From assembly GCA_965248435.1 (NCBI GenBank), contig OZ252100.1, forward strand, positions 3,808,001 through 3,872,000: a DNA stretch of 64,000 nt, read 5' to 3'. Every line of letters begins with the position of its first letter. Within the stretch, counting starts at the first letter, position 1. A model generated the notes under the pieces. The model saw nothing but the letters and a program-made list of their open reading frames with translations, ran no database searches and was not told where the DNA came from. The DNA comes from Candidatus Latescibacterota bacterium. GTDB taxonomy: Bacteria > Latescibacterota > UBA2968 > GCA-2709665. Shown one piece after another: positions 41,683 through 64,000 of this stretch. The translations under genes and the position numbers were made by a program.

Positions 41683-41758
41683 AAGCACGGTCCTTTAGAC
41701 GACCTGATGGAAATTAGGTTCTATGGTTCAGAATATTAGGTGTATCTATAGAAAGGCA

Positions 41759-41787
41759 TTCACGTAATAGGGCGCATTATCTATATT
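41759..41787 (+). promoter_or_regulatory. Candidate sigma70 promoter (Pc-like) upstream of the cassette array
   Basis: TTCACG-17 nt-TATATT in an AT-rich stretch 75 bp before the first GTT site. Confidence 0.4.
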
Positions 41788-41975
41788 ATTGGCAGGATTT
41801 ACGCAGTGCATTTTATCTGCCCTACAGGTGGAATCTGCGCACATGGTGCGCGAATGCAGAAGTTGAACTAAACCGCTTCGCGGTGGCCTGCTGCAAGGCC
41901 TTTGCTCTTTGACAACCAGGATATGATACCGTGCAAGTCCGGAGCCACTTTGCAAATGGCTCTGTGCTTCGCATC

Positions 41976-42013
41976 CTCCTTCTGCTAACAACGTCCACCA
42001 TCAGCAGAAGGAG
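41976..42013 (+). promoter_or_regulatory. RBS-sequestering hairpin upstream of the recombinase
   Basis: ctccttctgct (41976-86) is a perfect 11-bp complement of agcagaaggag (42003-13), which holds the SD. Confidence 0.55.
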
Positions 42014-42019
42014 AGAGCC

Positions 42020-42871
42020 ATGACCAAGCATCGGAAGCGAATGATCCGGGACATGCAGTTGAAAGGTTTAGATCCGGATACGCAGAAGGCGTACGTGAGC
42101 GGAGTGGCCGGGCTGTGTCGTTACTGCAAGACACCGCCCGACCGGCTCAGCGAAGAAGAGATCCGCGCCTATCTGCACTATCTGATCACTGAGCGGAAGC
42201 TGTCCCAAAGCTATGTCAACCAGGTATACAGCGGGCTGAAGTTTCTGTTCCAAACGACGTTGAAGCGTGACTGGGTCGAGTGGGGCATCCCTCGTGCGAA
42301 GAAGGCAAAGAAGCTCCCGGTGGTACTCTCCACAGAGGAAGTGCAGCGGCTGATCGACAGGACCAACAACCTGAAACACCGTACGCTGCTGATGGTCATT
42401 TACTCTGGCGGGCTCAGACTGAGTGAGGCCATCGGGCTAAAGCTTTCCGATATCGACAGTGACCGGATGCTGATCCGTGTGCGGGGCAAAGGCCAAAAAG
42501 AGCGAGAGACGCTTCTGGCCCAGGAGGCCTTAAAGGCACTCCGCGTCTATTGGCGCACCAACCCGTCTCGCGATTGGCTGTTCCCCGGCGAAAGACCGGA
42601 CGCGCCGCTCCATGCTCGCACTGTCCAGAAAGTCTTCGAGCAGGCCTGCCGACGCGCGGAGATACAAAAGCGTGCGAGTGTCCACTCGCTGCGTCACAGC
42701 TTCGCCACGCATCTTCTGGACAACGGAGTCGACATCCGCTTCGTCCAACAACTGTTGGGTCACACGAGCATTCGAACCACCACCGTCTACCTCCACGTCA
42801 CCACCCGGGACCTCACGCGTATCAGAAGCCCCCTGGACCTTTTGGGAGATGAAGACAAGCCGACTTCGTAG
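42020..42871 (+). CDS. Tyrosine recombinase (SAM-like N-terminal + catalytic domain), no IntI-specific insertion
   Basis: GLRLSE (R), GKGQKER (K), HSLRHSFATH, LLGH, TTVY. Confidence 0.92.
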   Translation: MTKHRKRMIRDMQLKGLDPDTQKAYVSGVAGLCRYCKTPPDRLSEEEIRAYLHYLITERKLSQSYVNQVYSGLKFLFQTTLKRDWVEWGIPRAKKAKKLPVVLSTEEVQRLIDRTNNLKHRTLLMVIYSGGLRLSEAIGLKLSDIDSDRMLIRVRGKGQKERETLLAQEALKALRVYWRTNPSRDWLFPGERPDAPLHARTVQKVFEQACRRAEIQKRASVHSLRHSFATHLLDNGVDIRFVQQLLGHTSIRTTTVYLHVTTRDLTRIRSPLDLLGDEDKPTS

Positions 42872-42883
42872 CGGAGGTCGGCC

Positions 42884-44068
42884 ATGTCACAGGCTCTCGA
42901 AGTCGCCGACATCTTCCGGGCCCACGGAGACAGCTATCAAGTAGAATACGGTGATCACATGCCGCTTCGGCAGAAGCGGGCCATGCGGGCTATCCAGATC
43001 TGCCGAACAGCTGCGCTGGGCGGACACGTGGAAGTGTGCGGACACTGCGGAGCGAAGCGGATCGCCTACAACTCCTGCCGCAACCGGCACTGTACGAAGT
43101 GCCAGTTCCTGACGACCGAACGATGGATCGACGCTCGTAAAGAGGATCTCCTTCCGATCCCATACTTCCACGTCGTCTTCACGTTGCCCGAGCCCCTGCG
43201 GCCGCTTGCTCTGCGGAACCAGAAGCTGATCTACAACCTGGTGTTTAAAGCCGCATCGCAGAGTCTTCTGGAGCTGGCGCGGGAACGGAAGTATCTTGGA
43301 GCGCAGATCGGCTTTACCGCCGTGCTTCATACATGGTCTCAGACACTCATCGACCACCCGCATCTGCACTGTATCGTAACTGGAGGTGGGCTGACCCACG
43401 ACGGTCAGGAATGGAAGGCGGCGCGACGGGGCTTCTTTCTACCCGTAAAAGTTCTGTCCCGACTGTTCCGGGGGAAGTTCCTTGCGTTCCTGAAGGACGC
43501 GCACCAGGAAGGCCTTCTGGCGTTCCCGGGATTGAGTGCTCCACTGGAAGATGCGTTCTTCGATCTGCTTCGGGGTCTTTACCAGAGAGAATGGACCGTT
43601 TACGTCAAGCCGACTTTTGCGGATCCAGAACGCATCGTGGCCTATCTGGGACGATACACACACCGGATCGCCATCTCCAACCACCGGCTGGTCGCCTGTG
43701 AGGGCGACCGGGTCTCATTCCACTACCGGGACCGCCAGGCCGGCAACCGACGGAAGCTGATGACCGTCGATGCCTACGAGTTCATCCGGCGGTTCCTGCT
43801 TCACATCCTGCCGGATGGCTTCGTGAAGATCCGGCACTACGGACTGCTCAGCAATCGGGGTCGCCGGAAAAAGCTCGCACGATGCCGTAGGCTCCTGGGC
43901 ACTGTATGCACGACGGCTTCCGCAGCCACAAAGGCGACCTGGCAGGACCTTCTGCTCCGGGTAACAGGCATCGATCTTCAGGTCTGTGCGCAGTGCGGAG
44001 GCCCTATGCTCACAGTCGGAACCCTCGCGCCTCTGCGAGCGCCTCCGGCACATGTTGCCGTAGCTTGA
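42884..44068 (+). CDS. IS91-family (HUH, Y2) transposase with Zn-binding N-terminal domain
   Basis: CRT..CGHC..YNSCRNRHCTKC, HPHLH, YLGRY, FVKIRHYGLL. Confidence 0.92.
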   Translation: MSQALEVADIFRAHGDSYQVEYGDHMPLRQKRAMRAIQICRTAALGGHVEVCGHCGAKRIAYNSCRNRHCTKCQFLTTERWIDARKEDLLPIPYFHVVFTLPEPLRPLALRNQKLIYNLVFKAASQSLLELARERKYLGAQIGFTAVLHTWSQTLIDHPHLHCIVTGGGLTHDGQEWKAARRGFFLPVKVLSRLFRGKFLAFLKDAHQEGLLAFPGLSAPLEDAFFDLLRGLYQREWTVYVKPTFADPERIVAYLGRYTHRIAISNHRLVACEGDRVSFHYRDRQAGNRRKLMTVDAYEFIRRFLLHILPDGFVKIRHYGLLSNRGRRKKLARCRRLLGTVCTTASAATKATWQDLLLRVTGIDLQVCAQCGGPMLTVGTLAPLRAPPAHVAVA

Positions 44069-44273
44069 GCTCCTACACCATCCCTTGCCCGCAAGCCCAA
44101 CCACCCAACACGGCAGTAGTCTGTCCACTCTTTGAGCTTGGTAGAGCGACTATGGGATCCTGCGACATCGGCCCCTCCAAACAGCTTCAAATACGGTCCG
44201 ATGACTGGGCCAGCCCAGCGGTCCTTACACAAGAATCACTCATCCAATCCCCATAGGCAGGTGAAGCGGCTTC

Positions 44274-44348
44274 GTTCAACACCGTGTATCCGGAATCCCG
44301 CTCCCGTCCACGCTTCTCCGACTCCGGATACACGCTTAATCGTTAACT
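44274..44348 (+). repeat. attC-like site 0
   Basis: GTTCAAC..gtgtatccgga / tccggatacac..GTTAACT. Confidence 0.7.
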
Positions 44349-44383
44349 GCAATCGTGGCCTGGGTGTCAAAGCAAGGAGAACC

Positions 44384-45448
44384 ATGTTGTCTGTAGCTGT
44401 TGTGGCCCTGGTATCTGTCCTGCTTTTGTCAGATTCTTCTTTCGGAAGAGATGTGAACCTTGACCTGACTCAAGCAGTAGCCGAAAATGACAGCGCCGCC
44501 TTGAGAGTCGCTCTAGATTTAGTTGCAGATGTGAATGCTAAGGACCAGAAAGGCATGACAGCTCTAATGGATGCGGCGATGAACCCCAATCCACACATTA
44601 CACAAATGTTGTTGGATTCAGGAGCAGCTGCAAATGCAATAGATTCGGAAGGCAGGACAGCTTTAATGTATGCGGCAGTGAAAGGAAATATCACAACCGT
44701 TCAAACCCTGTTGGACGCGGGTGCCCATATGAACACTCAAAACCGCGGGGGTAGGACAGTTTTGATGCTAGCTTCAGCAGCGGGTTACGAATCAATCGTA
44801 CAGGTGTTACTGGATGCGGGGGCTAGGGTGAATGCAGAAGACGGGAATGGTTACACGGCATTGAGGTGGGCGGAAAAGAATGCTCACATTGGCATTGCGC
44901 GGACGTTGCGGCTTGAGCGGGTACGGTTTAGGCCAGACATTGATATTCCCCTAATACGGGCATCATTTGCCGGAGACATATCCACTGTCCAAGCCTTGGT
45001 TGAGAAGGGCGTTGATGTGAACTTGAGGGACGAAGGTGGCAATACAGCTCTGAAATGCTCAGCTCGAAAGGGACATACAGACATTGTAGAAGTACTGTTG
45101 GATAGAGGTTCAGACGTGGATGCACAAAGTAAGAATGGCCATACAGCCCTGATGGTGGCAGCTCGTAAGGGCCATACGACTATTTTAGAAGTGCTCCTAG
45201 AAAAGGGCGCAGATGTGAACGCCACGGATATATATAGGGTTACGGCTTTGATGGGCGCGGCAGTCAAGTGTCATCGGACTGTCGTGCAAGCGCTTCTGGA
45301 TAATAATGCGGATGTCAATTTGAAAGACAGTAAGGGTAGAACAGCCTTGGAGTTAGCCAAGATGGCCTTAGGATCTGCCGTCGATTCAAACAAGGAACGC
45401 TATTCTGACCTTATTCTGTTGCTCCAGAATGCAGGAGCCGAGGAATAG
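44384..45448 (+). CDS. Ankyrin-repeat protein with signal peptide (cassette 1)
   Basis: Repeated G.TALM.AA..G...V..LLD.GA.VN; hydrophobic N-terminus. Confidence 0.92.
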   Translation: MLSVAVVALVSVLLLSDSSFGRDVNLDLTQAVAENDSAALRVALDLVADVNAKDQKGMTALMDAAMNPNPHITQMLLDSGAAANAIDSEGRTALMYAAVKGNITTVQTLLDAGAHMNTQNRGGRTVLMLASAAGYESIVQVLLDAGARVNAEDGNGYTALRWAEKNAHIGIARTLRLERVRFRPDIDIPLIRASFAGDISTVQALVEKGVDVNLRDEGGNTALKCSARKGHTDIVEVLLDRGSDVDAQSKNGHTALMVAARKGHTTILEVLLEKGADVNATDIYRVTALMGAAVKCHRTVVQALLDNNADVNLKDSKGRTALELAKMALGSAVDSNKERYSDLILLLQNAGAEE

Positions 45449-45480
45449 CTGACTGTCAAAAGTTCTACGGCCACGACAGC

Positions 45481-45561
45481 AGTTAACAAGGCACTTGCGG
45501 CTCGGGCCGTGCGGCCCTCGGCAAACCCCTACGGGGTTCGCAAGTGCCTAGACCGTTACAC
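45481..45561 (+). repeat. attC-like site 1
   Basis: AGTTAAC..ggcacttgcg / cgcaagtgcc..GTTACAC. Confidence 0.85.
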
Positions 45562-45587
45562 GCCAGGCACACAAGGATGGCTCAAAG

Positions 45588-46160
45588 GTGCTGATGCCCG
45601 AAGCCCTATCCATAATCGTGCAGCGGGTCTTTCACTCCAAGCCTCGATCAACACTGTTGACGGAGAGCACTGCACTCCAAGCTAGCGAGTTGGCCGACAC
45701 TTGCCTGGGCCTGCGCGCGCAGATGCTCCACTGTCTGGAGGGGCTTCCCGCGCTGGCCTTCGAACCGGCGCCTGACCGCCTGCCTGGGGAGACTGGCTGG
45801 ACGGCGGGTGAGATCGTCAGCCACAACACCGACCGCCTGTTGTGGGCGCTGACCGAGGCAACCGCGACCGCCGGACTGAGCGAAAGCATTGTTCCGAGGC
45901 CGCCCGAAGTGGTCGCGAGCAACGCAGCGCACGAGCCTATACTTCTAGACCGCTGCCTTGCCCTGGAGGTCGTGCAGGCGGCAAACGGCCATCTCAAGAG
46001 TGTGCTTCCTCTCCTGTTGTCAACCGACCGGGGGGAGACGACAACGAGGACTCACCACGGACCCATGAGCGTCAAATCGTGGCTACTCCTGATTTGTATC
46101 CACGACAGCGACCATTTGGGGCAGTTGCGCGCACGCCAGGAGCCAGGCACGTTGGCTTGA
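45588..46160 (+). CDS. DinB-like protein (cassette 2)
   Basis: WTAGEIVSH and HDSDHLGQL His motifs. Confidence 0.7.
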   Translation: MLMPEALSIIVQRVFHSKPRSTLLTESTALQASELADTCLGLRAQMLHCLEGLPALAFEPAPDRLPGETGWTAGEIVSHNTDRLLWALTEATATAGLSESIVPRPPEVVASNAAHEPILLDRCLALEVVQAANGHLKSVLPLLLSTDRGETTTRTHHGPMSVKSWLLLICIHDSDHLGQLRARQEPGTLA

Positions 46161-46203
46161 TGAGGAGGCGATGCTTTTTACATGTGGTGTGGATGTGCCC
46201 GGC

Positions 46204-46345
46204 GTGTAACACGACGGGCTGCGGCTCGTGGCATTCGCCCCTCGCCCAACCTGCCTCATCGCGGTCACGGCACTTGCTCAAGAAAATCGTGGGTGGCAAG
46301 CGCCGCGCCCGCTTGGCAGGTTCGCAGCCCGCGAGAACGTTACAC
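46204..46345 (+). repeat. attC-like site 2
   Basis: GTGTAAC..gggctgcg / cgcagccc..gagaacGTTACAC. Confidence 0.85.
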
Positions 46346-46408
46346 GCCAGCAGGTTCTTCCTGAAACAACCGATAGGATGATGTTCCTGATGGAGTTCCC
46401 TTGGAGCA

Positions 46409-47299: not shown

Positions 47300-47316
47300 C
47301 CCTTTGGTGCGCCGGC

Positions 47317-47455
47317 GTGTAACACGAGCACCCACGGCTCCGGCGCATACGCGCCTCCGCTGAAACCTGCCTCCCGCCTTACCAGTCTGCTCTGATAGAT
47401 GCCTGACGGCCTTCGTGAAGAGTCGGCAGGTTCGTGGGTGCCGAGAACGTTAAGT
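47317..47455 (+). repeat. attC-like site 3
   Basis: GTGTAAC..gcacccacg / cgtgggtgc..GTTAAGT. Confidence 0.85.
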
Positions 47456-47484
47456 GAAACCCGACGAAGGGGTTTACGCAAATC

Positions 47485-48132: not shown

Positions 48133-48166
48133 TGCTGGTACGGCGGGCGTATCCGCGTCGGACTTC

Positions 48167-48294
48167 ACTTAACACGTCCACTTGCGCTGCGGCGCATTCG
48201 CGCCTTGGCCTGACGGCAACCCGCCTTCCTCCTTCGCTGCTTCGCAGCTTCGGAGGGCAAGTCGGCGGGTTCGCAAGTGGCGGGAACGTTATAT
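48167..48294 (+). repeat. attC-like site 4
   Basis: ACTTAAC..ccacttgcg / cgcaagtgg..GTTATAT. Confidence 0.85.
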
Positions 48295-48321
48295 GCAATG
48301 CAGCCAGGAGAGGGTTTTCGA

Positions 48322-49044: not shown

Positions 49045-49088
49045 CCCCCACAGAAATGTGTTTTCTCTCGGCAACCTGGCTGCACTGC

Positions 49089-49175
49089 ATATAACACGAC
49101 GGGCTGCGGCTCCGGCCATTTGGCCTCCGCACCAACCTGCCTGCGGCAGGTTCGCAGCCCGCGAGAACGTTATAG
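49089..49175 (+). repeat. attC-like site 5
   Basis: ATATAAC..gggctgcg / cgcagccc..GTTATAG. Confidence 0.85.
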
Positions 49176-49252
49176 GAAATGCCAGCAGCTCAACTTACTG
49201 GGTGGTTGTTAAGAATGTTCGGAACTATTGAATCGAAAGAGGTGCGCTGAAC

Positions 49253-49906: not shown

Positions 49907-49943
49907 GGATCTAACCAATTAGAAACATGACTGCTGGCACTTC

Positions 49944-50037
49944 CTATAACACGACCACTTGCGCTGCGTCGCTTTCGCTCCTTGGCCTTTACGGCAACCC
50001 GCCTTTGGCGGGTTCGCAAATGGCGAGAACGTTATGC
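49944..50037 (+). repeat. attC-like site 6
   Basis: CTATAAC..ccacttgcg / cgcaaatgg..GTTATGC. Confidence 0.85.
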
Positions 50038-50143
50038 GCCAATGCTGTTTCTGTGGTGGAAACTGCAGACTAGGGAGCAGACCCCCAGGGCAATTGTTTG
50101 TACACCCAGATTGCCTATGATGGTGTAACGAGCAAGAAAGTTC

Positions 50144-50680: not shown

Positions 50681-50766
50681 ACGTCGGGTTCGGATAGAGG
50701 CAAGACCGAGAAAGTCAGGCAAACGACTGCTCTTGTATTTCTGTCGAGACACAGAAACAGCACAGC

Positions 50767-50911
50767 GCATAACAACGGCACCCCCGGCTTCGGCGCTTAC
50801 GCGCCTGCGCGCAACCTGCCTGGCGCTGTCACGGCGCTTGCAATAAATCAAGACCCTGAGGGGCAAGCGCCGCGCCAGCTTGGCAGGTTCGTGGGTGCTT
50901 GACCGTTAAAC
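50767..50911 (+). repeat. attC-like site 7
   Basis: GCATAAC..gcacccccg / cgtgggtgc..GTTAAAC. Confidence 0.85.
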
Positions 50912-50933
50912 GACATAAGAAAAATCAATCACT

Positions 50934-51944: not shown

Positions 51945-52046
51945 GTTTAACAGGCCACACACGCTGCGGTCGCTACGCTCCCTTGGCCTACGGCACAGCG
52001 GCTCCGTTTCACTGCGCCGCCGTCGTGTATGGCCGGACCGTTAGCC
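51945..52046 (+). repeat. attC-like site 8 (divergent type)
   Basis: GTTTAAC a ggccacacacg / cgtgtatggcc ggaccGTTAGCC. Confidence 0.8.
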
Positions 52047-52102
52047 GCAAGCGGCAGAGAAACACCAGATTGGGCACAAGGGATCTTAGGACTAGAGAAA
52101 AG

Positions 52103-52551: not shown

Positions 52552-52693
52552 GGCTAACACGGCACCCCCGGCTCAGCGCCTGTCGGCGCTTCGGCCCAAC
52601 CTTCCTTCGCGGTCACGGCGTTTGCTTCAAAGACAAAAGCTGGGCAACCGCCGCGCCCACTCGGCAGGTTCGTGGGTGCCGAGAACGTTAGAT
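52552..52693 (+). repeat. attC-like site 9, R' box interrupted by IS110
   Basis: GGCTAAC..cggcacc / ggtgccg..gagaacGTTAG|IS. Confidence 0.85.
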
Positions 52694-52706
52694 ACTCTCT
52701 TGGTGG

Positions 52707-53699
52707 TCAAGCCATTTTGTAGAACTTTTCTCCGTCGAAGTCCTGGTTGTGTTGGAGAATACCCCAGATGCAGTGAAGCAGCTTTCGCATCACCGCGATG
52801 ACCCCCTGCATCGGCTTCTTGCCTCGACTGATGAGTTTTTCGTAGAACGCCTTCACATTGGGCTGCTGTTGAATGGCCACCAGCGCTGGCATATATAAGG
52901 CGGTTCGTAAATACTTATTCCCCGCTTTGGAGATCACTCGGCGCTTGTGAATCGTGTCTCCCGATTCGTGGGGTCGTGGATCCAGGCCTGCGTAGGCCAC
53001 CCATTGGGCAGGCTTCATATCGGCAGGCAACATCGCAATCTCTGCCAGAATGCCCATCGCGCTGGTTGCTGCGATCCCGTGAACGGAAGTCAATCGTGCG
53101 AACTTCTCGCGCAGAGTGGCTTCCCCCTCAATGAGCTCCAGAGCCCGCGCTTTCAGCTGCTGCACACGCGCTTTGAGATGTTCAACATGCTCTTCGATGT
53201 CCAAGGAGACGGCAGAGGTGACCGATGGCCGCTGCGTGGAAGCATGAAGCCGGTTTCCTTCCCGGTTGATCTCGACTTTGATCTGCGCGATCCGGCGTGT
53301 AATCGCCTGCAGGTCAAGCACTTCATCACGGGGTGCCTGCCACGTCTGGAAGGGCATCCGCTGCACATACTCCAATGCCACTTCCGCATCGATCGGGTCG
53401 GTTTTCCCCCGTTTCATCAAAGCCTGGGAGAAATTCCTCAGCGCTCTGGGGTTGATTACCATCACCTGAGTCTTCGGATGCCGATGCAACGCCAACGCCA
53501 CCTCAAAACTATAGATGCCTGTGGCCTCGACTCCCACTCGAGCCGGCTTTCCCCGCTTTGTCGCCCACTTGATCAATCGACGGTGCCCTTCGCCTGTGTT
53601 GGGAAATCTTGCCAGTGGATACGCTTTCCCTGAGCGACGGATCGCGACCACCAGCTCCCGGGCTGAGACGTCTACCCCCAACAGATTCTCTTGCTTCAT
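52707..53699 (-). CDS. IS110-family recombinase (DEDD RuvC-like + Tnp20 domain)
   Basis: GVDVS, VEATG, KTDPID, YAGLDP..HESG, SKAGN; start MKQENLL after an AAGGAGG RBS. Confidence 0.93.
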   Translation of the reverse strand: MKQENLLGVDVSARELVVAIRRSGKAYPLARFPNTGEGHRRLIKWATKRGKPARVGVEATGIYSFEVALALHRHPKTQVMVINPRALRNFSQALMKRGKTDPIDAEVALEYVQRMPFQTWQAPRDEVLDLQAITRRIAQIKVEINREGNRLHASTQRPSVTSAVSLDIEEHVEHLKARVQQLKARALELIEGEATLREKFARLTSVHGIAATSAMGILAEIAMLPADMKPAQWVAYAGLDPRPHESGDTIHKRRVISKAGNKYLRTALYMPALVAIQQQPNVKAFYEKLISRGKKPMQGVIAVMRKLLHCIWGILQHNQDFDGEKFYKMA

Positions 53700-53719
53700 G
53701 ATCTCTCCCTCCTTATTTG

Positions 53720-53872
53720 TACCTCTGGTCCCCCGACCTTGCACCTGGCCTACCAGCCTTGTGATACAGACTCTCGGGTCTCGGATACTCCTCGGCATGG
53801 GCCAAGAAGGCGGGGGGCCTATCTAACGTCCAAGGTCAATGCCTTCATGCGCAATCCGGCCTCCCCAGAGGT
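53720..53872 (-). ncRNA. Predicted IS110 bridge RNA
   Basis: Closing stem ACCUCUGG/CCAGAGGU; target loop AUUGCGCAU + GACGUUAG; donor loop GGAGUAUC + ACAAG. Confidence 0.75.
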
Positions 53873-53956
53873 CTTCTTCGAACCAAGATAATCTACAAAT
53901 AGATCATATTTTCAAGATACAAGATGCAATCGTGGCCCTGTTACGAAGAGGGTTGA

Positions 53957-54790: not shown

Positions 54791-54807
54791 AGCGGGGCCA
54801 CGACAGC

Positions 54808-54896
54808 ATCTAACACGACGGGCTGCGGCTCCGGCGCATTCGCGCCTCCGACCCAACCTGCCTGCGGCAGGTTCGCAGCCCGCGAGAACGTTATGC
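54808..54896 (+). repeat. attC-like site 10
   Basis: ATCTAAC..gggctgcg / cgcagccc..GTTATGC. Confidence 0.85.
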
Positions 54897-54942
54897 GGCA
54901 TCGGCACTTCAAAATCTTTCTGGTTAACCATCTGGACCTTTG

Positions 54943-55491: not shown

Positions 55492-55538
55492 CTTTGAGAA
55501 CATCATACTTAGAAACGGACACTAACCGCACCAACGCC

Positions 55539-55651
55539 GCATAACACGGCACCCTCGGCTCAGGCCATCCGGCCTTCGCCCAACCCGCCTTCGCGGCTTA
55601 CGCCGCTTCGGTGGACAGGCGGCAGGTTCGTGGGTGCCGAGAACGTTATGC
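55539..55651 (+). repeat. attC-like site 11
   Basis: GCATAAC..cggcaccc / gggtgccg..GTTATGC. Confidence 0.85.
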
Positions 55652-55714
55652 GGCAAGTCGGTCTTGGTACAATGGTATGAGGCCATAGGGAGAAAGCACA
55701 AACCGGAGAGACCT

Positions 55715-56605
55715 ATGCATTCGATTGACCTGAAGGGAAAAGTTGGTTTGGTCACCGGCGTTGGCAACAAGTGGAGCCTGGGTTGGGCAATTGCCCAAAT
55801 TCTCCACTCCGCAGGAATGCTCCTTGTTTTTGGGTATTCCAGACAGAGAAGTCGAAAAGCAATCGAGAAGCTCCTGACCGAATCGGGATGGGATAATGTG
55901 GTACTTCCAGATGTGATCTACGATGCCGAGGACGATACTCAGATTGAAAGACTCTTCAACTTTGTGGAGGATGAGGTTGGTGCTTTACATGCGTTCCTTC
56001 ACTCGATAGCCTTTGCACCTCCAGAGGCACTGCAAGGCGAGTTCGGTGATACATCCCGTGAGGCTTTTCGGACCGCTCTGAATGTCAGTACGTTTTCTTT
56101 CTTGAAGATGAGTCGATGTGCCTCAGAATTGATGGTTGATGGCGGTTCCATTCTCACTCTGAGTTTCTTGGCTTCACAGAGAGTGTTTCCTCACTACAAC
56201 GTAATGGGAACTGCGAAAGCCGCGCTCGAACACTCTGTCAGACAGCTAGCTTTCGAGTTAGGACCCAGAAACATCAGGGTGAACACCATTTCGGCTGGAC
56301 CAATAAGCACGGCGTCTGCCCGAGGCGTAAAGGGATTTGGAGGATTTCATCACTCCTACGCTGAGAATGCACCCCTGCGAAGAAATGTAAGTCAGGAGGA
56401 AGTCGGTAAGGCTGCTCTCTTCCTTCTTAGTGATCTGTCGAGTGGAGTCACCGGGGAAGTGCTTCATGTGGATGGAGGATACAATGTCCTGGGAGCGCCC
56501 CTTGGAGAATTTCCAAAGGCAGATCAACGGCAAAAAAGGGGAGAAGCATGCTCCGGCTCTCCCCCAAACTCCTTCGATGAGAACCAAAGCCGACTCACCG
56601 CATAA
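55715..56605 (+). CDS. fabI: Enoyl-ACP reductase (cassette 12)
   Basis: GVGNKWSLGW, HSIAFAP, YNVMGTAKAALE, ISAGPI, VLHVDGG; stop codon lies in the attC R'' box. Confidence 0.88.
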   Translation: MHSIDLKGKVGLVTGVGNKWSLGWAIAQILHSAGMLLVFGYSRQRSRKAIEKLLTESGWDNVVLPDVIYDAEDDTQIERLFNFVEDEVGALHAFLHSIAFAPPEALQGEFGDTSREAFRTALNVSTFSFLKMSRCASELMVDGGSILTLSFLASQRVFPHYNVMGTAKAALEHSVRQLAFELGPRNIRVNTISAGPISTASARGVKGFGGFHHSYAENAPLRRNVSQEEVGKAALFLLSDLSSGVTGEVLHVDGGYNVLGAPLGEFPKADQRQKRGEACSGSPPNSFDENQSRLTA

Positions 56606-56685
56606 CAAGCCGTCTGCGGCTCGGGGCAGTCGCCCCTCGCTCAACTTGCCTTCGGCAAACTCGCAGAACGGCCAGAACGTTAACT
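56600..56685 (+). repeat. attC-like site 12
   Basis: GCATAAC..gccgtctgcg / cgcagaacggc..GTTAACT. Confidence 0.8.
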
Positions 56686-56710
56686 GCAATGGCGGTGGGG
56701 GGAAGCAGGA

Positions 56711-57586: not shown

Positions 57587-57634
57587 AAAAGCGCAGGCCA
57601 CCGTTTTGTAATGGAGAGTCAGCACCGCCACAGC

Positions 57635-57779
57635 AGTTAACACGGCACTCCCGGCTCAGCGCCTGGTTGCGCTTCGCCCAACCTTCCTTCGCGGTCACGG
57701 CGCTTGCTTTAAAGATAAAATGCGGTTTGCAACCGCCGCGCCCGCTTGGCAGGTTCGCAGCCCGCGAGAACGGTTAAAT
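57635..57779 (+). repeat. attC-like site 13 (mismatched arms)
   Basis: AGTTAAC..cggcactcccg / cgcagccc..GTTAAAT. Confidence 0.8.
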
Positions 57780-57886
57780 GACATGGGATGAAATGAGACT
57801 ACATTCTTGCGGTATATCCTCAGAATAGAAGGAGATATGCTGCAAATTTCGTGATTCACTAATGAACGGGCAACAAGACAAGGAAT

Positions 57887-58786: not shown

Positions 58787-58794
58787 TGTTAGTA
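58735..58794 (+). repeat. Vestigial classical 59-be-type attC nested inside cassette 14
   Basis: GCCCAAC-aagcc-gctggagac..gtctaagc-cctgat-GTTAGTA, 60 bp. Confidence 0.6.
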
Positions 58795-58841
58795 AGAACT
58801 TGGCTCAACTATCAGTTTGACCAGAGATAGTATCCCACGTC

Positions 58842-58933
58842 ATTTAACACGCCCACTTGCGCTGCGGCGCATTCGCGCCTTGGCTTTTGGCAACCCGCCT
58901 GCAGCGGGTTCGCAAGTGGCGAGAAGGTAGGAC
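58842..58933 (+). repeat. attC-like site 14 with degenerate R' (GTAGGAC)
   Basis: ATTTAAC..ccacttgcg / cgcaagtgg..gagaagGTAGGAC. Confidence 0.75.
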
Positions 58934-58959
58934 GCCAAGTCTGTACAGGCGGGTAGCCT

Positions 58960-60267
58960 ATGGATGAAGAGATCTTGAATGAGTCAATCGTATTCCTTGG
59001 TCTATGTGAGAAAGTCCAAACGGTTCCCGATGGCCATCCGGACTTTCTGAAACAGAACATACTAGGACTCAAGACTACTGTCTTCTCTCCCTTCTTTCCT
59101 ATGGGAATGAAAGGGTTTAGTCTTGCCTTCTGTATGAAGTGGCGGGATGTGCCATTTTCTGCCAAGATTAGAGGCTTGCATCCCGACGGGAAGGAAGCGT
59201 TTCGTATCGAATTCAACGCTGAATTTGAGCCACATGAGTCCGGACAGCGAAAGAAACCAGGTGAGGCCAGCCAATCAAGGTTTAGTGTAATTGCATCAGA
59301 CGATCCGCCATCTTGGGCATTTGTGACTTTCCCTGTGCCTGAAAAATCAGTGGTGGCAACGCCGGGTTTTATGAAAATCTGTGCCGCAGTTGCCGAGGAG
59401 GAGTCAGTCATTGGCCAGGTAAGATTTGTGCATGCGAAGCCTGCCCCACTCACTCCAGATAGAATCGACGCGATCAAGAGCAACCCACAAGCAGCGAAAA
59501 CAGTCTGGTACACAATCGGGTGCACGGAGTGTTCGGACGCTATCAAAGCCTACGCTGGGATCGGTCGCAACATGGATTCGGAAGAAGATGGCTGGATTTG
59601 GCAACATGACCTACCTAAGACGTTCAAATGCAAATGTGCGAAAACGAGGTTGGATCTATCCTATATGCGCGATGGTCTTCACGGCCTCTTGGGTTCCATC
59701 TATAGCATAGGCGAGGACGTAGAGTTCACCCGTCTCTACGAAAGAAGCGCTCTTGAGTCAATTTCAGGCAAGTATTGGAAGATACTGCGAGATTCGGAAA
59801 GGGAAGAAGATCTGCAGAAGTTCATCGAGGGAGCTCCAGCACTTTTGCAGTGTTTTAGTCCTGCACGGATCTTTCACAAGAGCCCCATCCTGAGTAAATA
59901 CAGTGTTGATTTCGCCATTCTCGACACTCAGGGGCACCTAATCCTTATTGAGATAGAAAGACCAGGAATCCGCTTGCTTCGTAAGGATGGCGGAATGGCG
60001 GCCGAACTCGGACATGCTTTCACTCAAGTAAGTCAATGGTTACTGGAATTTGACTTGCATCGACAGGCTTGCCTGGAATGTATTGGGGTCGACCCAAAAG
60101 AGGTTGTCCAAGTTAGAGGTGTAGTTATCGCAGGACGAGAAGCCGAGTATCCGGCAGAACATTTGGCCAGGCTAAAATGGGAAGACCGAGGTAAGATAAG
60201 CTTCCTTACATACGACGATCTTGGCCGGAGCTATATCAGTCTTATTCGAAGGTTCCATGACCTGTAG
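58960..60267 (+). CDS. Shedu (SduA/DUF4263)-like nuclease with uncharacterised N-terminal domain (cassette 15)
   Basis: EEDLQKFI, VDFAI, LIEIERP, AFTQVSQW, VVIAGR, LTYDDL. Confidence 0.72.
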   Translation: MDEEILNESIVFLGLCEKVQTVPDGHPDFLKQNILGLKTTVFSPFFPMGMKGFSLAFCMKWRDVPFSAKIRGLHPDGKEAFRIEFNAEFEPHESGQRKKPGEASQSRFSVIASDDPPSWAFVTFPVPEKSVVATPGFMKICAAVAEEESVIGQVRFVHAKPAPLTPDRIDAIKSNPQAAKTVWYTIGCTECSDAIKAYAGIGRNMDSEEDGWIWQHDLPKTFKCKCAKTRLDLSYMRDGLHGLLGSIYSIGEDVEFTRLYERSALESISGKYWKILRDSEREEDLQKFIEGAPALLQCFSPARIFHKSPILSKYSVDFAILDTQGHLILIEIERPGIRLLRKDGGMAAELGHAFTQVSQWLLEFDLHRQACLECIGVDPKEVVQVRGVVIAGREAEYPAEHLARLKWEDRGKISFLTYDDLGRSYISLIRRFHDL

Positions 60268-60283
60268 ATCGTGCAGACTCGGC

Positions 60284-60427
60284 ATCTAACACGCCGGGCT
60301 GCGGCTCCGGCGCATTCGCGCCTCCGGCCCAACCTGCCTTTCGCGTTCACGGCGCTTGCTTGGCGACGAACAAAAGGGGCAAGCGCCGCGCCCACGGGCA
60401 GGTTCGTGGGTGCCGAGAACGTTAAAT
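60284..60427 (+). repeat. attC-like site 15 (mismatched arms)
   Basis: ATCTAAC..gggctgcg / cgtgggtgccg..GTTAAAT. Confidence 0.8.
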
Positions 60428-60507
60428 GCAATTGCGGCTCACAGACAAGCCGGCGACGCGTCCTGCGCCGCAAACAAAACTAGAGCTACGGAAGTAGGAG
60501 TACACTC

Positions 60508-61422
60508 ATGGCTGAACAAACCGAAACTGAATCACCCGAATGCAGTAATGTCGCCCCTCTCGTGGGATTCTGGGGCTGTGATGCGGAAACGGACGAGATA
60601 CCTGTTGGGTTTGATGTCGCACTCGTCAGGAATCCGAGGGTGGATGTTGATGAGGAATGGTCAAAGAAGATTGGGACGTCGGCTACCGATGAGCTGCGAA
60701 GAGCTCAGTGGGCACTTGAACACAGGTATCGTGGTGAGCCGGGAATCCATTTGGGATCAAAGGAGGATCTTTCGGATCAGTTGTTGCAGACTGCGTTGCT
60801 TGCTCTTTGGATCACTAAGCCCACCGGAGCCAGGATCACGCACCTGCTGAGATACCGTACCCCCTGGCACTCTGCGAATGCAGCATCTGTCGCGTTCTAC
60901 CGAGGGGATTCCTTTAGACCTAATCGTCGATATGAAAGGACTACTTTCGCCCCCGACGATCTGGATGACCTCGGGACAGTGTTCAAGGGCGTGAAATCAA
61001 TATTCGACATGAAGAAGGGACTCAGGCGAGCACTCTACCATCTGAGCGGGGCCTTACACTTGTGGTTCTGGGATGCTCGATTCGCGATGTTCACAGTCGT
61101 TCTCGAAAGCCTGTTCACCACAGACGCACAAGAGATCACGCACAAGATCAGCGAACGCATCGCCTTCTTCCTTAAGGACACTCCAGCAGAGAGGCGATGT
61201 GTGTTTGATGACGTAAAGGAAATCTACCGTACAAGATCGAGAATTGTCCACGGACTCGATCTCAAGGCTACTGAAGAACAAACCGTCAGCCTCTTGGCGG
61301 AACTAGAGGCGCTTGTTCACCACGTTTTGAAGAGGATTTTGAAAGATTCAAAGCTGGTAGAGGAGTTCTCTGGCAATGCCAAGCGACGTGAACAGTTCCT
61401 AACTGACCTTGTGTTCTCCTAA
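60508..61422 (+). CDS. HEPN-domain protein (ApeA-like; cassette 16)
   Basis: LESLF..EITHKISERIA..YRTRSRIVHG (RxxxxH). Confidence 0.75.
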   Translation: MAEQTETESPECSNVAPLVGFWGCDAETDEIPVGFDVALVRNPRVDVDEEWSKKIGTSATDELRRAQWALEHRYRGEPGIHLGSKEDLSDQLLQTALLALWITKPTGARITHLLRYRTPWHSANAASVAFYRGDSFRPNRRYERTTFAPDDLDDLGTVFKGVKSIFDMKKGLRRALYHLSGALHLWFWDARFAMFTVVLESLFTTDAQEITHKISERIAFFLKDTPAERRCVFDDVKEIYRTRSRIVHGLDLKATEEQTVSLLAELEALVHHVLKRILKDSKLVEEFSGNAKRREQFLTDLVFS

Positions 61423-61479
61423 GTCTTTATGGAGCTTGGCCAACTTGCCTTCGTAGCAAGCTGGCCGGGCCGCAACAGC

Positions 61480-61622
61480 ATTTAACACGAGCACCCCCGG
61501 CTTCGGCGCATTCGCCCCTCGCCCAACCTGCCATTTCACTGTCACGGCGCTTGCTTAAGAAAACCGTGGGTGGCAAGCGCCGCGCCAGCTTGGAAGGTTC
61601 GCAGCCCGCGAGAACGTTAGCC
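61480..61622 (+). repeat. attC-like site 16 (mismatched arms)
   Basis: ATTTAAC..gcacccccg / cgcagccc..GTTAGCC. Confidence 0.8.
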
Positions 61623-61716
61623 GAAATTCCTTACCCCACCCCGTCTGTGAAGGCACGCAGATTCGTAACCACAGTCGATCGGAGACCGTTTCGACCGGTG
61701 GGACGGAGATCTTATC

Positions 61717-62166
61717 TTGAGATACGGAATGAGTGCCGCGGCCGTGATCGTCCAACACAATCGAGTGCTGCTGGTCCATCATTCTAAGCGGGGCGAGTTT
61801 GACTTCTGGTTGCCCCCCGGCGGCGGCCTTGAAGGACAGGAGTCTATCTTTGACTGCGCCTCGCGAGAGGCACTGGAAGAAACGAGTCTTGAGGTTGAGT
61901 TAGACAGAATTATCTACATTCAAGAATTTGTCGAATCTGACTATCACTTCTGCAAGTTTTTCATCCTGTGCCGAAGTTACAATGGCACCATTTCTCTCAA
62001 GAACAAAACAGCCGAGGAGGATTTCCTGGTAGACGCTCGTTTCTTCTCTGAGAGTGACCTAAGCAGCATGGATGTCAGGCCAGATATACTGAAGGAACAA
62101 TTCTGGTCAGATCTTCGGGCGGGCTTTCCAAAAACGAGATATCTCGGGTTGCACACGATAGGTTAA
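61717..62166 (+). CDS. NUDIX hydrolase (cassette 17)
   Basis: PGGGLEGQESIFDCASREALEET. Confidence 0.9.
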   Translation: MRYGMSAAAVIVQHNRVLLVHHSKRGEFDFWLPPGGGLEGQESIFDCASREALEETSLEVELDRIIYIQEFVESDYHFCKFFILCRSYNGTISLKNKTAEEDFLVDARFFSESDLSSMDVRPDILKEQFWSDLRAGFPKTRYLGLHTIG

Positions 62167-62243
62167 AGACGCAAATGCTTTGACGCGTGCTTGAGGGCTG
62201 CCCTCAATGGAAATACCGAGGGGGGCAGTTCTTCAAGAACTTC

Positions 62244-62340
62244 GGCTAACACGTCTACTTGCGCTACGGCGCATTCGCGCCTTGGCCTCCGGCAACCCGC
62301 CTGACGGCGGGTTCGCAAGTGGCGAGAACGAACGTTATAC
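62244..62340 (+). repeat. attC-like site 17
   Basis: GGCTAAC..acttgcg / cgcaagt..gagaacgaacGTTATAC. Confidence 0.82.
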
Positions 62341-62369
62341 CACATTAGTCAGGACAGAAAGGCAACAGA

Positions 62370-62828
62370 ATGAAGGATTGCATGACCTGCGAACTGACGG
62401 AGAGACGCAGGCTGGGCCAAGCTCCACTTTGGGACTGCATCTATCGCACTCAGTTTTGGGATGTGGCGCATGCTTACAATACCGCATTGCCTGGCTGGCT
62501 TGTGTTGATTGTTCAGAGACATATAGAAGCGATCGATGAACTGACTGAGCAGGAAGCCGTTGAGTTGGGGGGCTTGATTCGCCGGGTTTCTTTGGCGCTA
62601 AAAAAGATCACTGGATGTGCGAAAACATACGTGATCCAATTTGCCGAGCATAAAAATCATCCGCATGTGCACTTCCATATTGTGCCACGTATGTCTGATC
62701 AGCCCGAGGACCGACGAAGCACAAAGATCTTTGCCTATCTGGGCGTCTCTCAAGAGGAAAGTGTGAGTGAACATCAGATGAATGACATTGCCACCAAGAT
62801 TCAGAGCATTCTGTTGTCAAATGATTGA
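62370..62828 (+). CDS. HIT family hydrolase (cassette 18)
   Basis: CMTC, HPHVHFHIVPR. Confidence 0.9.
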   Translation: MKDCMTCELTERRRLGQAPLWDCIYRTQFWDVAHAYNTALPGWLVLIVQRHIEAIDELTEQEAVELGGLIRRVSLALKKITGCAKTYVIQFAEHKNHPHVHFHIVPRMSDQPEDRRSTKIFAYLGVSQEESVSEHQMNDIATKIQSILLSND

Positions 62829-62845
62829 AAGTCTAAACTCACGTC

Positions 62846-62988
62846 GTATAACACGGCACCCCCGGCTCAGCGCCTGACGGCGCTTCGACCCAACCCGCGC
62901 TCGCGGTCACGGCGCTCGCCTTAAAGACAAAAGCCGGGGCAACCTCCGCGCCCGCTCCGCAGGTTCGGGCGTGCCGAGAACGTTACAC
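62846..62988 (+). repeat. attC-like site 18
   Basis: GTATAAC..cggcac / gtgccg..GTTACAC. Confidence 0.85.
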
Positions 62989-63102
62989 GCAACCGGCCCC
63001 TAGCAAGGCAGGGCGGCGCGTCCTGCGCCGCCAAACACAAAGGTTGCAAAAACCGACAAAATTGGCGTCTATTAGAGAGATAATAGGTAAGGATCTTGAA
63101 TA

Positions 63103-63342
63103 ATGCCGACGGTATTGAGGGAAGGTCCCTATCGATTCTTTTTCGTATCACTCGACCGAGAAGAACCCGCGCATATTCACATACGGCGGGAGAACATGGT
63201 AGCAAAGTTTTGGCTTGATCCTATGGCGCTGGAAAGGGCTGGTGGATTCAGAGCTTCCGAACTGAACCGGATCGCCCAGCTTGTTCAAGAGCATCGAGAA
63301 CACTTCTTGGAGCAATGGCATGGCTTCTTCGCAGAAGAGTAA
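63103..63342 (+). CDS. DUF4160 protein (putative toxin; cassette 19)
   Basis: MPTVLR.GPYRFFF.S....EPAHIH..AKFWL. Confidence 0.85.
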   Translation: MPTVLREGPYRFFFVSLDREEPAHIHIRRENMVAKFWLDPMALERAGGFRASELNRIAQLVQEHREHFLEQWHGFFAEE

Positions 63343-63637
63343 GTCTGAAGCAAGAGCGCAAGAGGTGACACTCACTGACGAAGTGTTGAGCATTAGCCTC
63401 GTGGACGGTCGTTCCGTCAGTGTGCCGCTTTCGTGGTATCCTCGTCTGTGGTACGGCAGTGAGGAAGAACGCAAGAACTTCGAACTATTTGGAGATGGAT
63501 CGTACATTCACTGGCCTGATCTCGACGAAGATCTCACAGTTGAAGGTATCCTCGAAGGAAAGCGATCGGCCGAAGGTCCCAGCTCGCTGAAGAAATGGCT
63601 CGAGACAAGAGAAGGAAAATCCAAACCCACAGCTTGA
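63320..63637 (+). CDS. DUF2442 protein (putative antitoxin; cassette 19)
   Basis: L.DGR...VPLSWYPRL, IHWPDLDEDL; overlaps the DUF4160 gene. Confidence 0.85.
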   Translation: MASSQKSKSEARAQEVTLTDEVLSISLVDGRSVSVPLSWYPRLWYGSEEERKNFELFGDGSYIHWPDLDEDLTVEGILEGKRSAEGPSSLKKWLETREGKSKPTA

Positions 63638-63712
63638 GGATACATCCAACTGAGTTGTGCGTACGCGGCCTTGCCATCCCCGGCAAGGCCGCAACTACAA
63701 GGTCCCGGCAGC

Positions 63713-63852
63713 GTGTAACACGACGGGCTGCGGCTCGGGGCATTCGCCCCTCGCGCAACCTGCCTTATCGCGGTCACGGTGCTTGCCGATGAAAGGCGGG
63801 TTGCAACCGCCGCGCCCGCTCGGCAGGTTCGTGGGTGCCGAGACCGTTACCT
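63713..63852 (+). repeat. attC-like site 19 (mismatched arms)
   Basis: GTGTAAC..gggctgcg / cgtgggtgccg..GTTACCT. Confidence 0.82.
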
Positions 63853-64000
63853 GCCATGCAGGTTTTTGAGTTTCCGGTTTCAATAGAAGGGGCAAACCAA
63901 ACAACAGCTCAGGGGCTTCTGACGAGGCCCCTTGTTTGTCAGGTTGATAGGTACTTGGCGCGCGCGCGGCAGCGCGCCCGACTGACACCTCGTTTCAGTC

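Follow-up and report, generated by a model that had tools for sequence, protein, structure and literature searches.

An integron-type cassette array in a Latescibacterota genome, a candidate short integrase in its relatives and an IS91-family element at its entry site

We analyzed a 64,000-nucleotide window from the genome of a Candidatus Latescibacterota bacterium (contig OZ252100.1; genome G000 below, 5.67 Mb in 2 contigs, 97.5% complete), in which a long array of integron-type gene cassettes follows a pair of genes encoding a tyrosine recombinase and an IS91-like HUH/Y2 transposase. Integron integrases (IntI) are defined, in the literature and by detection tools, by their I2 domain, which is regarded as enabling the recombination of folded single-stranded attC sites. 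Given this definition, arrays without such a gene are set aside as orphans, that is, as CALINs (clusters of attC sites lacking an integron integrase). An earlier note on this DNA had proposed that the pair may be a non-IntI platform for capturing and shuffling the cassettes. Our analysis points to a different arrangement. The stretch from 41.7 to 63.9 kb is very probably a chromosomal array of the integron type from which the integrase gene has disappeared, and is operationally a CALIN. Its probable native integrase survives in relatives as a short, I2-less tyrosine recombinase, and the gene pair belongs to an IS91-family insertion sequence (IS) which invaded the entry site.

The cassette array and the element at its first position

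The array comprises 19 attC-like sites (Table 1), all on the plus strand, bounded by TAAC...GTTA and spaced 0.6 to 2.3 kb apart with no IntI nearby, which corresponds to the working definition of a CALIN (two or more co-oriented attC sites with under 4 kb between them). The earlier note had described a same-strand series of AAC..GTT hairpins, as we also found; its count of at least 20 cassettes is reached as 20 units if the cassette-shaped IS is included, but the attC sites themselves number 19. In the site alignment, the L''/L' stems covary among three subtypes (GGCACCC/GGGTGCC, GGGCTGCG/CGCAGCCC and CCACTTGCG/CGCAAGTGG), and the center is short in sites of 84 to 98 nt and holds an additional hairpin in sites of 128 to 148 nt. 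Three sites were folded as bottom-strand single-stranded DNA (ssDNA), and these gave the canonical hairpin, in which a bulge of 4 nt separates the R box from a long L stem, with z scores of -3.4 to -4.6 relative to dinucleotide shuffles. The sites thus combine R'' (..AAC) and R' (GTT..), L''/L' boxes, an asymmetric unpaired spacer and, in the three that were folded, the ssDNA structure of attC.

Every open reading frame between the attC sites is on the plus strand, and the predicted products have unrelated functions. Among them are ankyrin repeats and a DinB-like protein, two kinases (one P-loop, one APH-like), a tyrosine phosphatase, two methyltransferases, a nucleotidyltransferase, an SDR and a TIM-barrel protein; several further products belong to no family. 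A longer frame starting at 44132, ahead of the first true cassette gene, extends into the IS and was rejected as spurious. Half-site hidden Markov models (HMMs) detected no such attC in window positions 1-45000, and these HMMs together with a covariance model built from the window attCs detected none beyond 63855, so that the array ends about 145 nt short of the window end. Rfam returned no family at its gathering score in the window, and to our knowledge attC is not an Rfam family. A strict attC detector, requiring 6/7 R''/R' pairs, recovered only 4 of the 19, since R' is part of the cassette that follows; a relaxed version recovered 10, together with the IS end and two or three stray matches in 128 kb.

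The gene pair at the first position lies within an element that occurs in six intact copies in G000 (C1 1.447, 2.070, 3.850, 4.651, 4.842 and 5.171 Mb), with 97.4 to 99.6% identity to the window copy in a BLAST search of window positions 41600-45600 against the genome. All 12 frames, six for the recombinase and six for the transposase, are open. When the six copies are aligned, near-identity starts in each of them at G|TTGAAC (G at 41862 in the window) and ends at ...CTTAATCG|TTA (G at 44342). The right flanks of the six copies are all different, which makes it unlikely that they arose as one segmental duplication. The pair is in cassette orientation in all six, and an attC lies within 0.6 to 1.5 kb downstream of five of them. 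The transposase scored 449.9 bits against NF033538 (cut-off 125) and carries the HPHLH and YxxxY motifs. Its zinc-finger and Y2 domains, the copy number, the defined ends, the absence of a target duplication and the GTTA that follows the right end in 6/6 copies identify the element as a member of the IS91 family. IS91 itself is flanked by GTTC/CTTG.

The element also has the sequence outline of a gene cassette, with G|TTGAAC on the left and GTTCAAC..stem..CTTAATCG|TT on the right. The GTTCAAC of the right end is the reverse complement of the GTTGAAC of the left end, so a circular form would restore a paired R''/R' box beside an asymmetrically spaced L stem, the arrangement seen in the attC sites of the array. 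Folded as the bottom strand, the right end gave z = -3.3.

As the earlier note had stated, the recombinase of this element (...ALRVYWRTNPSRDWLFP...) is the only tyrosine recombinase in the window, is co-oriented with the array and lacks the insertion that distinguishes IntI. It scored 195.5 bits against the IntI profile TIGR02249, below the cut-off of 265, and its alignment falls into two stretches, with model positions 177-236 left out between them. Its catalytic R, K, H, R, H and Y fall in columns that are invariant among 19 homologues.

The combination of such a recombinase with a Y2 transposase is common. Of 8,000 candidates scored, over 6,500 proteins of about 283 amino acids, mostly on contigs of 1 to 5 kb, matched the IS-borne recombinase at E<=1e-30, and 320 plasmid records matched the junction region of the pair; the 10 plasmid records listed carry an 'IS91 family transposase' beside a 'site-specific integrase' or 'tyrosine-type recombinase'. 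Given this abundance, the pairing is an ordinary and widespread IS architecture. The contigs of four public sequencing runs end at the IS boundaries, and one run contains a copy of the 4.651-Mb type with its own flanks. None of these contigs connects 41862 to 44343, as an empty site would, or links the two IS ends, as a circle would, although rare forms tend to be lost from contigs. A broken copy (one TAA) of a 362-amino-acid island-type integrase lies ahead of the 4.651-Mb copy in G000 (C1 4650323-4651300).

Table 1. Coordinates of features at the head of the array and of the attC-like sites in the window
Feature	Position	Strand	Remarks
Nuclease gene	40648-41682	+	344 amino acids; DUF1016_N and staphylococcal-nuclease-like (SNase) domains (Pfam)
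Recombinase remnant	41692-41715	+	Last codons, PLDDLMEI; alignable with the coding sequence for the C terminus of the 82-amino-acid remnant at G000 4954386-4954601
attI-like entry site (left region), putative	41715-41864	+	About 130 nt; ends ...GAATGCAGAAG|TT; core G at 41862
IS91-family element	41863-44342	+	2,480 bp, cassette-shaped; starts TTGAAC, ends ...CTTAATCG
IS-borne tyrosine recombinase	42020-42871	+	Xer/IntI-like, 283 amino acids, no I2 insertion; only match of its kind in the window
HUH/Y2 transposase, IS91 family	42884-44068	+	394 amino acids; Zn_Tnp_IS91 (PF14319) and Y2_Tnp (PF04986); 12 nt after the recombinase gene
attC-like right end of the IS	44274-44348	+	GTTCAAC-AC; 15-bp stem 44283-44297/44320-44334; 22-nt loop; spacer CTTAATC; G|TT at 44342
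First true cassette gene	44384-45448	+	Ankyrin-repeat protein, 354 amino acids, signal-peptide-like N terminus
attC 1	45481-45564	+	
attC 2	46204-46348	+	
attC 3	47317-47458	+	
attC 4	48167-48297	+	
attC 5	49089-49178	+	
attC 6	49944-50040	+	
attC 7	50767-50914	+	
attC 8	51945-52049	+	Divergent
attC 9	52552-52696	+	IS110-family element starts within the R' end
IS110-family insertion	52683-53922	-	Transposase 52707-53798; NF033542, 203 bits
attC 10	54808-54899	+	
attC 11	55539-55654	+	
attC 12	56600-56688	+	
attC 13	57635-57782	+	R' = GGTTAAA
attC 14	58842-58936	+	Degenerate R' = GGTAGG
attC 15	60284-60430	+	
attC 16	61480-61625	+	
attC 17	62244-62341	+	4-nt duplication ahead of R'
attC 18	62846-62991	+	
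attC 19	63713-63855	+	Last of the array

The entry site and the short recombinases of relatives

The 110 to 150 nt immediately left of the IS form, in all six copies, one sequence family, 60 to 84% alike, and each copy lies at the GTT core of this attI-like site. An HMM of the site matched 11 places in G000, comprising the six occupied by the IS, two that are intact and unoccupied and three that are truncated. The unoccupied sites read GAATGCAGAAG|TTAACAG (4.954 Mb) and GAATGCCGTAG|TTAAGTG (5.004 Mb) and continue straight into a cassette and then attC sites. These comparisons indicate six independent insertions of the IS, each at the GTT of a site that was already present. The attI site of a complete integron has the core G|TTRRRY; the window site, a putative attI, ends in G|TT and the unoccupied copies in G|TTAACAG and G|TTAAGTG. 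Folding of the site as ssDNA was insignificant (z = -0.9 and +0.2), which fits a double-stranded site of the attI type.

Remains of a recombinase gene precede the site. An 82-amino-acid C-terminal remnant lies on the same strand 33 nt upstream of the 4.954-Mb site, and its best matches are 71 to 72% identical in the 'lone' short recombinases of other phyla, compared with 58 to 60% for the IS-borne recombinase and 50% for the IntI of relative G004. In the window and at the 1.449-Mb locus, the recombinase is reduced to its last codons behind a nuclease gene. The earlier note had reported a nuclease gene and no divergent intI upstream of the window array, and this is what we found; the nuclease gene takes the place that a short recombinase gene has in relatives. 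A paralogous DUF1016_N and SNase gene (G000 C1 ~1449700-1450700) likewise stands directly ahead of the last codons of the lost recombinase and the attI-like site. Given that two paralogous nuclease genes occupy the same place, the nuclease-attI module appears to have been duplicated after the integrase was lost. A left half of an attC lies ahead of the attI-like site at the left of the 2.072-Mb IS copy (C1 2072943-2073162), so that at this locus a module of attI and array looks as if it had been inserted within a second array (2055-2089 kb). A 362-amino-acid integrase next to cysS, upstream of a left-region copy at 4.625 Mb (L010, C1 4624078-4625492), was considered as a candidate integrase and rejected; it is an island-type recombinase, 34% identical to the remnant, and the site there is truncated.

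Five relatives (G003, G018, G094, G096 and G038) carry an intact, co-oriented short recombinase gene directly ahead of the same attI-like sequence. The sequence after its stop codon reads ..CATAGGAAGCATTCnCGAAC.. and ends in ..ACCGTAACnGTTCGgTAATcCcGTAG|TTA (type TAATnCnGTAG|TTA); in G038 the end reads ..GTTCGGTACTAAGCAG|TTA (also given as ...TACTAAGCAG|TTA). A sixth relative, G083, matched the attI-like HMM at E = 2e-9. Sites that match the half-site HMMs of the G000 attCs lie downstream in G003, G018, G096 and G038. Given that the window site is homologous to the post-recombinase sequence of these relatives, the head of the window array is most simply read as a decayed order of short recombinase, attI-like site and cassettes.

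We searched for a canonical IntI in G000 and in 40 relatives of the same family and order, the same 41 genomes in which arrays and pairs were counted. TIGR02249 gave 23 partial matches in G000, none above the cut-off and none covering the IntI-specific insertion at model positions 177-236, and the best of them were the six copies of the IS-borne recombinase. No IntI with an I2 domain adjoins the array, as it would in a complete integron. The alternative offered in the earlier note, a CALIN serviced by an intI elsewhere in the genome, therefore has no candidate enzyme in this 97.5%-complete genome. Only two of the 41 genomes, G004 and G036, encode a canonical IntI, and G036 has no attC match. 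The attC covariance model matched 31 of the 41 (G000 aside, 19 of the 21 family members and 11 of the 19 genomes from the sister family), and 30 of these 31 are without canonical IntI.

It could still be argued that an ordinary IntI with I2 built these arrays and was then lost or acted in trans, and that the short recombinases are bystanders or Xer-like genes of other elements. The canonical IntI of G004, in the same family, and that of G036, in the same order, are in keeping with this explanation. So is the literature, in which CALINs without IntI are common in bacteria (PMC4889954; bioRxiv 10.1101/2022.02.06.479319, on archaeal integrons) and I2 is held necessary for attC recombination (PMC8138268, PMC9024848). 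Against it, the TIGR02249 search found no canonical IntI in G000, in eight relatives (G003, G018, G038, G094, G096, G088, G083 and G117) or in five genomes outside the phylum (G042-G046), all with arrays headed by a short recombinase. The attI-like sequence of G000 is homologous to the region behind short recombinases, and its HMM matched nothing beside the IntI genes of G004 or G036. The directional bias and the recurrence in other phyla described below count against bystander genes as well. We regard an ordinary IntI origin as unlikely.

The short recombinases themselves resemble IntI without its hallmark. In an alignment with two canonical IntI proteins, they lack about 40 residues of the IntI insertion, before and after the WxFP motif. 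Both types of short recombinase, IS-borne and array-heading, can be aligned with each half of IntI and retain the catalytic residues. Five array-heading proteins from other phyla (L043, L041, L045, L055 and L071) scored 197 to 251 bits against TIGR02249, in two stretches and below the cut-off. Against the XerC and XerD profiles (TIGR02224/TIGR02225), these five reached 178 to 212 bits (184 to 212 bits in the comparison that covered both types of short recombinase) relative to cut-offs of 330 to 335, and neither type is assigned to XerC or XerD. An N-terminal extension of about 95 amino acids with the motif ..PG..W....K.W.vP.. is common to G004e (L212:13230-14399, minus strand), L055:9662-10789, L045, L071 and L052. 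Proteins extended in this way are 370 to 390 amino acids long and occur in the window's phylum, in Bacteroidota and in Spirochaetota; the extension has no Pfam match.

We placed these proteins in a quick maximum-likelihood tree of 108 rows (4 of 112 input rows were dropped by the builder or for stops), many forks of which are unresolved. Canonical IntI formed one clade with a support of 100, and the Xer genes of G000 formed a separate branch, also with a support of 100. Thirty-eight of 41 recombinases linked to a Y2 transposase, among them that of the window, formed one clade (SH-aLRT support 94). The IS-borne recombinase is 45 to 46% identical to the array-heading short recombinases and groups with them, apart from canonical IntI. 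The array-linked short recombinases were scattered over several groups of short recombinases.

A scan of the phylum with the short recombinase of G004 gave matches at E<=1e-50 in 26 of 168 genomes; the matches in G000 were the IS copies. We analyzed 20 short-recombinase loci (18 after the phylum scan, G004e and G038), calling attC-like matches with a heuristic and locus-specific HMMs. Six of the seven proteins with the N-terminal extension are followed by at least one co-oriented attC-like site (4, 4, 4, 3, 1 and 1), and the seventh is a pseudogene. Seven core-only homologues (G003, G018, G096, G104, G038, G004h and G004g) have one to three co-oriented sites each, and five have none. Over the 20 loci, about 30 downstream matches are co-oriented and 4 are opposite, a count that is not a formal test given that the loci are related.

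The same layout recurs outside the phylum. In an Ignavibacteriota record, 225 nt separate a short recombinase gene from 11 co-oriented attCs (GCCTAAC...GTTAGGC). Behind the short recombinase there are 5 and 3 attCs in two Flavobacteriaceae records, and 2 and 1 in two Bacteroidales records before the contig ends. A Firmicutes metagenome-assembled genome (L096, 220-4681 and 5168-5959) has a short I2-less recombinase with four attC-like sites upstream on the opposite strand, which is the classical divergent layout of an integron. Complete integrons have very rarely been reported in Firmicutes.

Position, orientation, site homology and recurrence across phyla suggest, with somewhat better than even confidence on our part, that a short I2-less recombinase was the integrase of the window array. 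The idea of a non-IntI platform in the earlier note may survive in this form, given that an I2-less recombinase appears to be the native partner of the site in relatives; it does not hold for the recombinase of the pair, which belongs to a separate family.

Several observations weigh against the arrangement that we propose. Recombination of these sites by a short recombinase is deduced from gene position only, and G004, a member of the same family, has a canonical IntI, so that an enzyme of this kind may have acted in trans in the past. The homologue in G001 lies inside an array of the opposite strand, with three sites on the other strand. Relatives rich in attC (G002 with 45 matches, G020 with 31 and G021 with 19) have no short-recombinase match at E<=1e-50, and only three of seven array heads fetched from such relatives have a co-oriented, partial recombinase remnant. 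Given how few array heads carry a recombinase, most arrays of this bacterial family look orphaned, like that of the window, and the link between arrays and short recombinases rests on a minority of loci. The evidence on the pair has corresponding weaknesses. None of 50 recombinase-Y2 pairs from other genomes and metagenomes (34 to 49% identity in the recombinase) had two or more co-oriented attC-like sites by our heuristic, which is a weak negative given that the heuristic also found 0 of 7 at canonical IntI loci. A structure-free search for dispersed repeats was positive at 3 of 7 IntI loci, 4 of 49 lone recombinases and 2 of 50 pairs (L037 and L058). Finally, GTT is present on both sides of each IS junction, which makes a G|TT crossover indistinguishable from an IS91-type cut one base away.

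The behavior of the IS91-family element

The earlier note had suggested that the pair may be the array's own machinery for capture and shuffling, with the HUH enzyme making ssDNA or circles and the I2-less recombinase joining the cassettes at their GTT sites. Some of the evidence is congenial to this idea. The six IS-borne recombinases are the only intact IntI-like recombinases in G000, they resemble the array-heading proteins as described above, the IS has an attC-like hairpin and sits at GTT cores in 6 of 6 cases, and the strand that a nick next to GTTA would release, as judged from the junctions, is the bottom one, the strand of attC that recombines. The distribution of the pair tells against it. 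The pair is present in only two of the 41 genomes, G000 and G004, and absent from 29 of the 31 attC-positive ones, and four multicassette arrays of G000 (946-993, 4948-4952, 5335-5341 and 5548-5552 kb) have no copy. None of the 50 pairs elsewhere adjoins an array by the weak heuristic mentioned above. The element of G004 stands behind a real IntI, and a Clostridia element of the same type inserts at a different conserved target that is not attC. The array is also older than the IS, given that the attI-like sites are 60 to 84% alike and the IS copies at least 97%. We consider it very unlikely that the pair runs the array.

The G004 element is an ortholog (recombinase 55% and transposase 61% identical) with the same end design and other stem letters. 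Of its four copies, two immediately follow an IntI gene, which is full in one case (464.5 bits) and partial in the other, with the same 60-nt flank ending in ...AATTAATAG|TTGAAC; another lies between a GCCTAAC-bearing hairpin and G|TTAGGC, and the fourth is divergent (53%), with no ends found. Copy 'b' is about 4.2 kb long, with something inserted. An Oceanirhabdus (Clostridia) element, 48% identical, has the same end design and three identical copies at a conserved, AT-rich target that is not attC, and no attC array was seen in that genome. Given that the ends recur in G004 and Oceanirhabdus, they are ends of the IS family, attC-like but not borrowed from the window array. None of the 50 pairs from other genomes and metagenomes had an IntI in the available flanks. 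In this bacterial family, then, the element lands on integron cores of both integrase types, and elsewhere it is not bound to integrons. The three Oceanirhabdus copies have homologous flanks on both sides. In the Oceanirhabdus record L037 (2866-16100), the IS copy lies within tandem paralogous coding segments and a repeated noncoding unit of about 70 nt, none of it attC-like; the repeats of this record had been a candidate attC array and were rejected as coding paralogues.

We considered that the IS might be a passive gene cassette, moved by attI x attC recombination by a resident integrase, which would be IntI in G004 and would formerly have been the short recombinase in G000. Its exact cassette boundaries, with an R'' GTTCAAC that would pair with the restored R' GTTGAAC in a circle, its constant cassette orientation, and its place at the first position behind attI in G000 and G004 and between GCCTAAC... 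and G|TTAGGC in G004 all speak for this explanation, which suits G004. In G000, however, six near-identical intact copies exist without an intact resident integrase, and two of these copies sit in nuclease-attI modules that show greater divergence than the IS does. The same hairpin ends occur in the Clostridia genome in which no attC array was seen, and copies of the element are common in genomes without an integron signal. A passive cassette is a serious candidate that we nevertheless hold to be somewhat improbable.

As for how an IS91-family invader would reach attI cores by its own enzymes, a mechanism that falls a little short of an even chance in our estimate is that the HUH transposase releases the bottom strand and the IS-borne recombinase joins the attC-like hairpin at the GTT core. 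The right hairpin end inserts next to GTTA, as would be expected of an IS91-type origin end beside its tetranucleotide, and a nick at this place would release the bottom strand, the one that is recombinogenic in attC. A rolling-circle model for IS91-type elements is given in PMC7923331. One 130-nt site family is chosen among about 44,000 genomic GTTA, so more than the tetranucleotide would be needed, and the IS-borne recombinase is the obvious candidate. The HUH-made ssDNA circles joined at GTT sites in the earlier note are a possible mechanism for the site-specific insertion of the IS itself.

The array has other irregularities. Its IS110-family element has three copies in the genome (in the window and at C1 1444289-1445528 and C1 2066291-2067550), each starting inside the R' end of an attC, presumably the insertion behavior known for IS1111-attC elements. 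It is a secondary, attC-homing invader of the array. Four attCs (57635-57782, 60284-60430, 61480-61625 and 63713-63855) have L'' and L' arms from different subtypes, with L boxes that pair poorly; they look like hybrids produced by homologous exchange in the shared central hairpin and not by G|TT recombination. Upstream of the nuclease gene, 37899-40448 encodes a large pectate-lyase-like/GH28 beta-helix protein of 849 amino acids, and a 117-nt stretch within this gene (39545-39661) has a near-copy at 34220-34336.

Relation to known systems and significance

The window array resembles chromosomal integrons and CALINs as described in PMC4889954 and PMC9024848. Its promoterless cassettes lie on the same strand, separated by folded attCs in which R''/L''/L'/R' boxes and the crossover G|TT are present; the attCs form a uniform set within the lineage, several arrays occur per genome, and IntI is absent nearby. 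It differs from a chromosomal integron in that its entry site is homologous to the region behind an I2-less short recombinase and not behind IntI. The co-oriented integrase directly upstream of attI in the relatives is the layout of archaeal and 'reverse' integrons, the integrases of which do carry the IntI additional domain (bioRxiv 10.1101/2022.02.06.479319). Both types of short recombinase share the alignable halves and catalytic residues of canonical IntI (TIGR02249), but lack its insertion of about 40 amino acids (positions 177-236), fall below its cut-off and lie outside its clade.

The element at the first position resembles IS91-family IS with an upstream recombinase gene in its zinc-finger and Y2 HUH transposase, the 283-amino-acid recombinase encoded 12 nt upstream, its multiple copies, its terminal hairpin, the GTTN at its right end and the lack of a visible target duplication. 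ISShvi3 and ISWz1 are names of such elements (ISfinder). Both names occur in PMC9229058 and PMC11322121. Unlike other recombinase-bearing IS91 elements, the copies of the window element all occupy the GTT core in entry sites of the integron type and are in cassette orientation, and their flanking tetranucleotide is GTTA, compared with GTTC/CTTG for IS91. ISCR elements of class 1 integrons likewise place a relative of the HUH Y2 transposase next to cassette arrays; they differ in lying beyond the 3' conserved segment, without a recombinase and not bounded by GTT cores. The window transposase reached 26 bits against NF052416 (ISCR clade Ia; cut-off 925).

IS1111-attC elements and group IIC-attC introns home to integron recombination sites. 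Both are mentioned in PMC9229058 and PMC7923331. The window element is like them in being a mobile element found in integron recombination sites in one orientation, and the IS110-family insertion in the same array is a further example. It differs in its use of an HUH enzyme and a tyrosine recombinase, its cassette outline and its target, which is an attI-like core (6/6 in G000) and not attC. In the literature that we searched, we found no description of an attI-homing IS91-family element. Nor did we find a description of an I2-less recombinase heading attC arrays or of a role for the IS91-type recombinase, although loci of this kind might be listed among the integrons and CALINs tabulated in the supplements to the two IntegronFinder papers.

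We tentatively propose a broader scheme, which goes further than the reading of the window itself and seems to us on the unlikely side. Short I2-less Xer/IntI-like recombinases, some with the N-terminal extension of about 95 amino acids, would be the working integrases of an unrecognized class of integrons. The recombinase-bearing IS91 elements would be a sister lineage in which the HUH enzyme delivers the folded bottom strand, resulting in homing to attI cores, and they might still move cassettes where the integrase has been lost. Such a class would include members in the window's phylum, Ignavibacteriota and Bacteroidota, and possibly in Firmicutes and Spirochaetota, and would be filed as CALINs by current tools.

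In summary, sequence homology links the entry site of a large 'orphan' array to the stretch that directly follows an I2-less recombinase gene in relatives, and the same order of gene and array recurs in distant phyla, in genomes without canonical IntI. The I2-less platform and the attI-homing IS are both put forward on comparative evidence only. If the short recombinases are active, I2 would not be the sole route to attC recombination, some CALINs would be complete platforms, and the step from Xer-like recombinases to IntI would be directly testable with natural proteins. The IS91-family element, found in G000 always on the GTT core of integron entry sites, may offer a first handle on the role of the recombinase in a common and unexplained subgroup of IS91. 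An attI-homing IS91 element would be a third kind of parasite of integron sites, after IS1111-attC elements and group IIC-attC introns.

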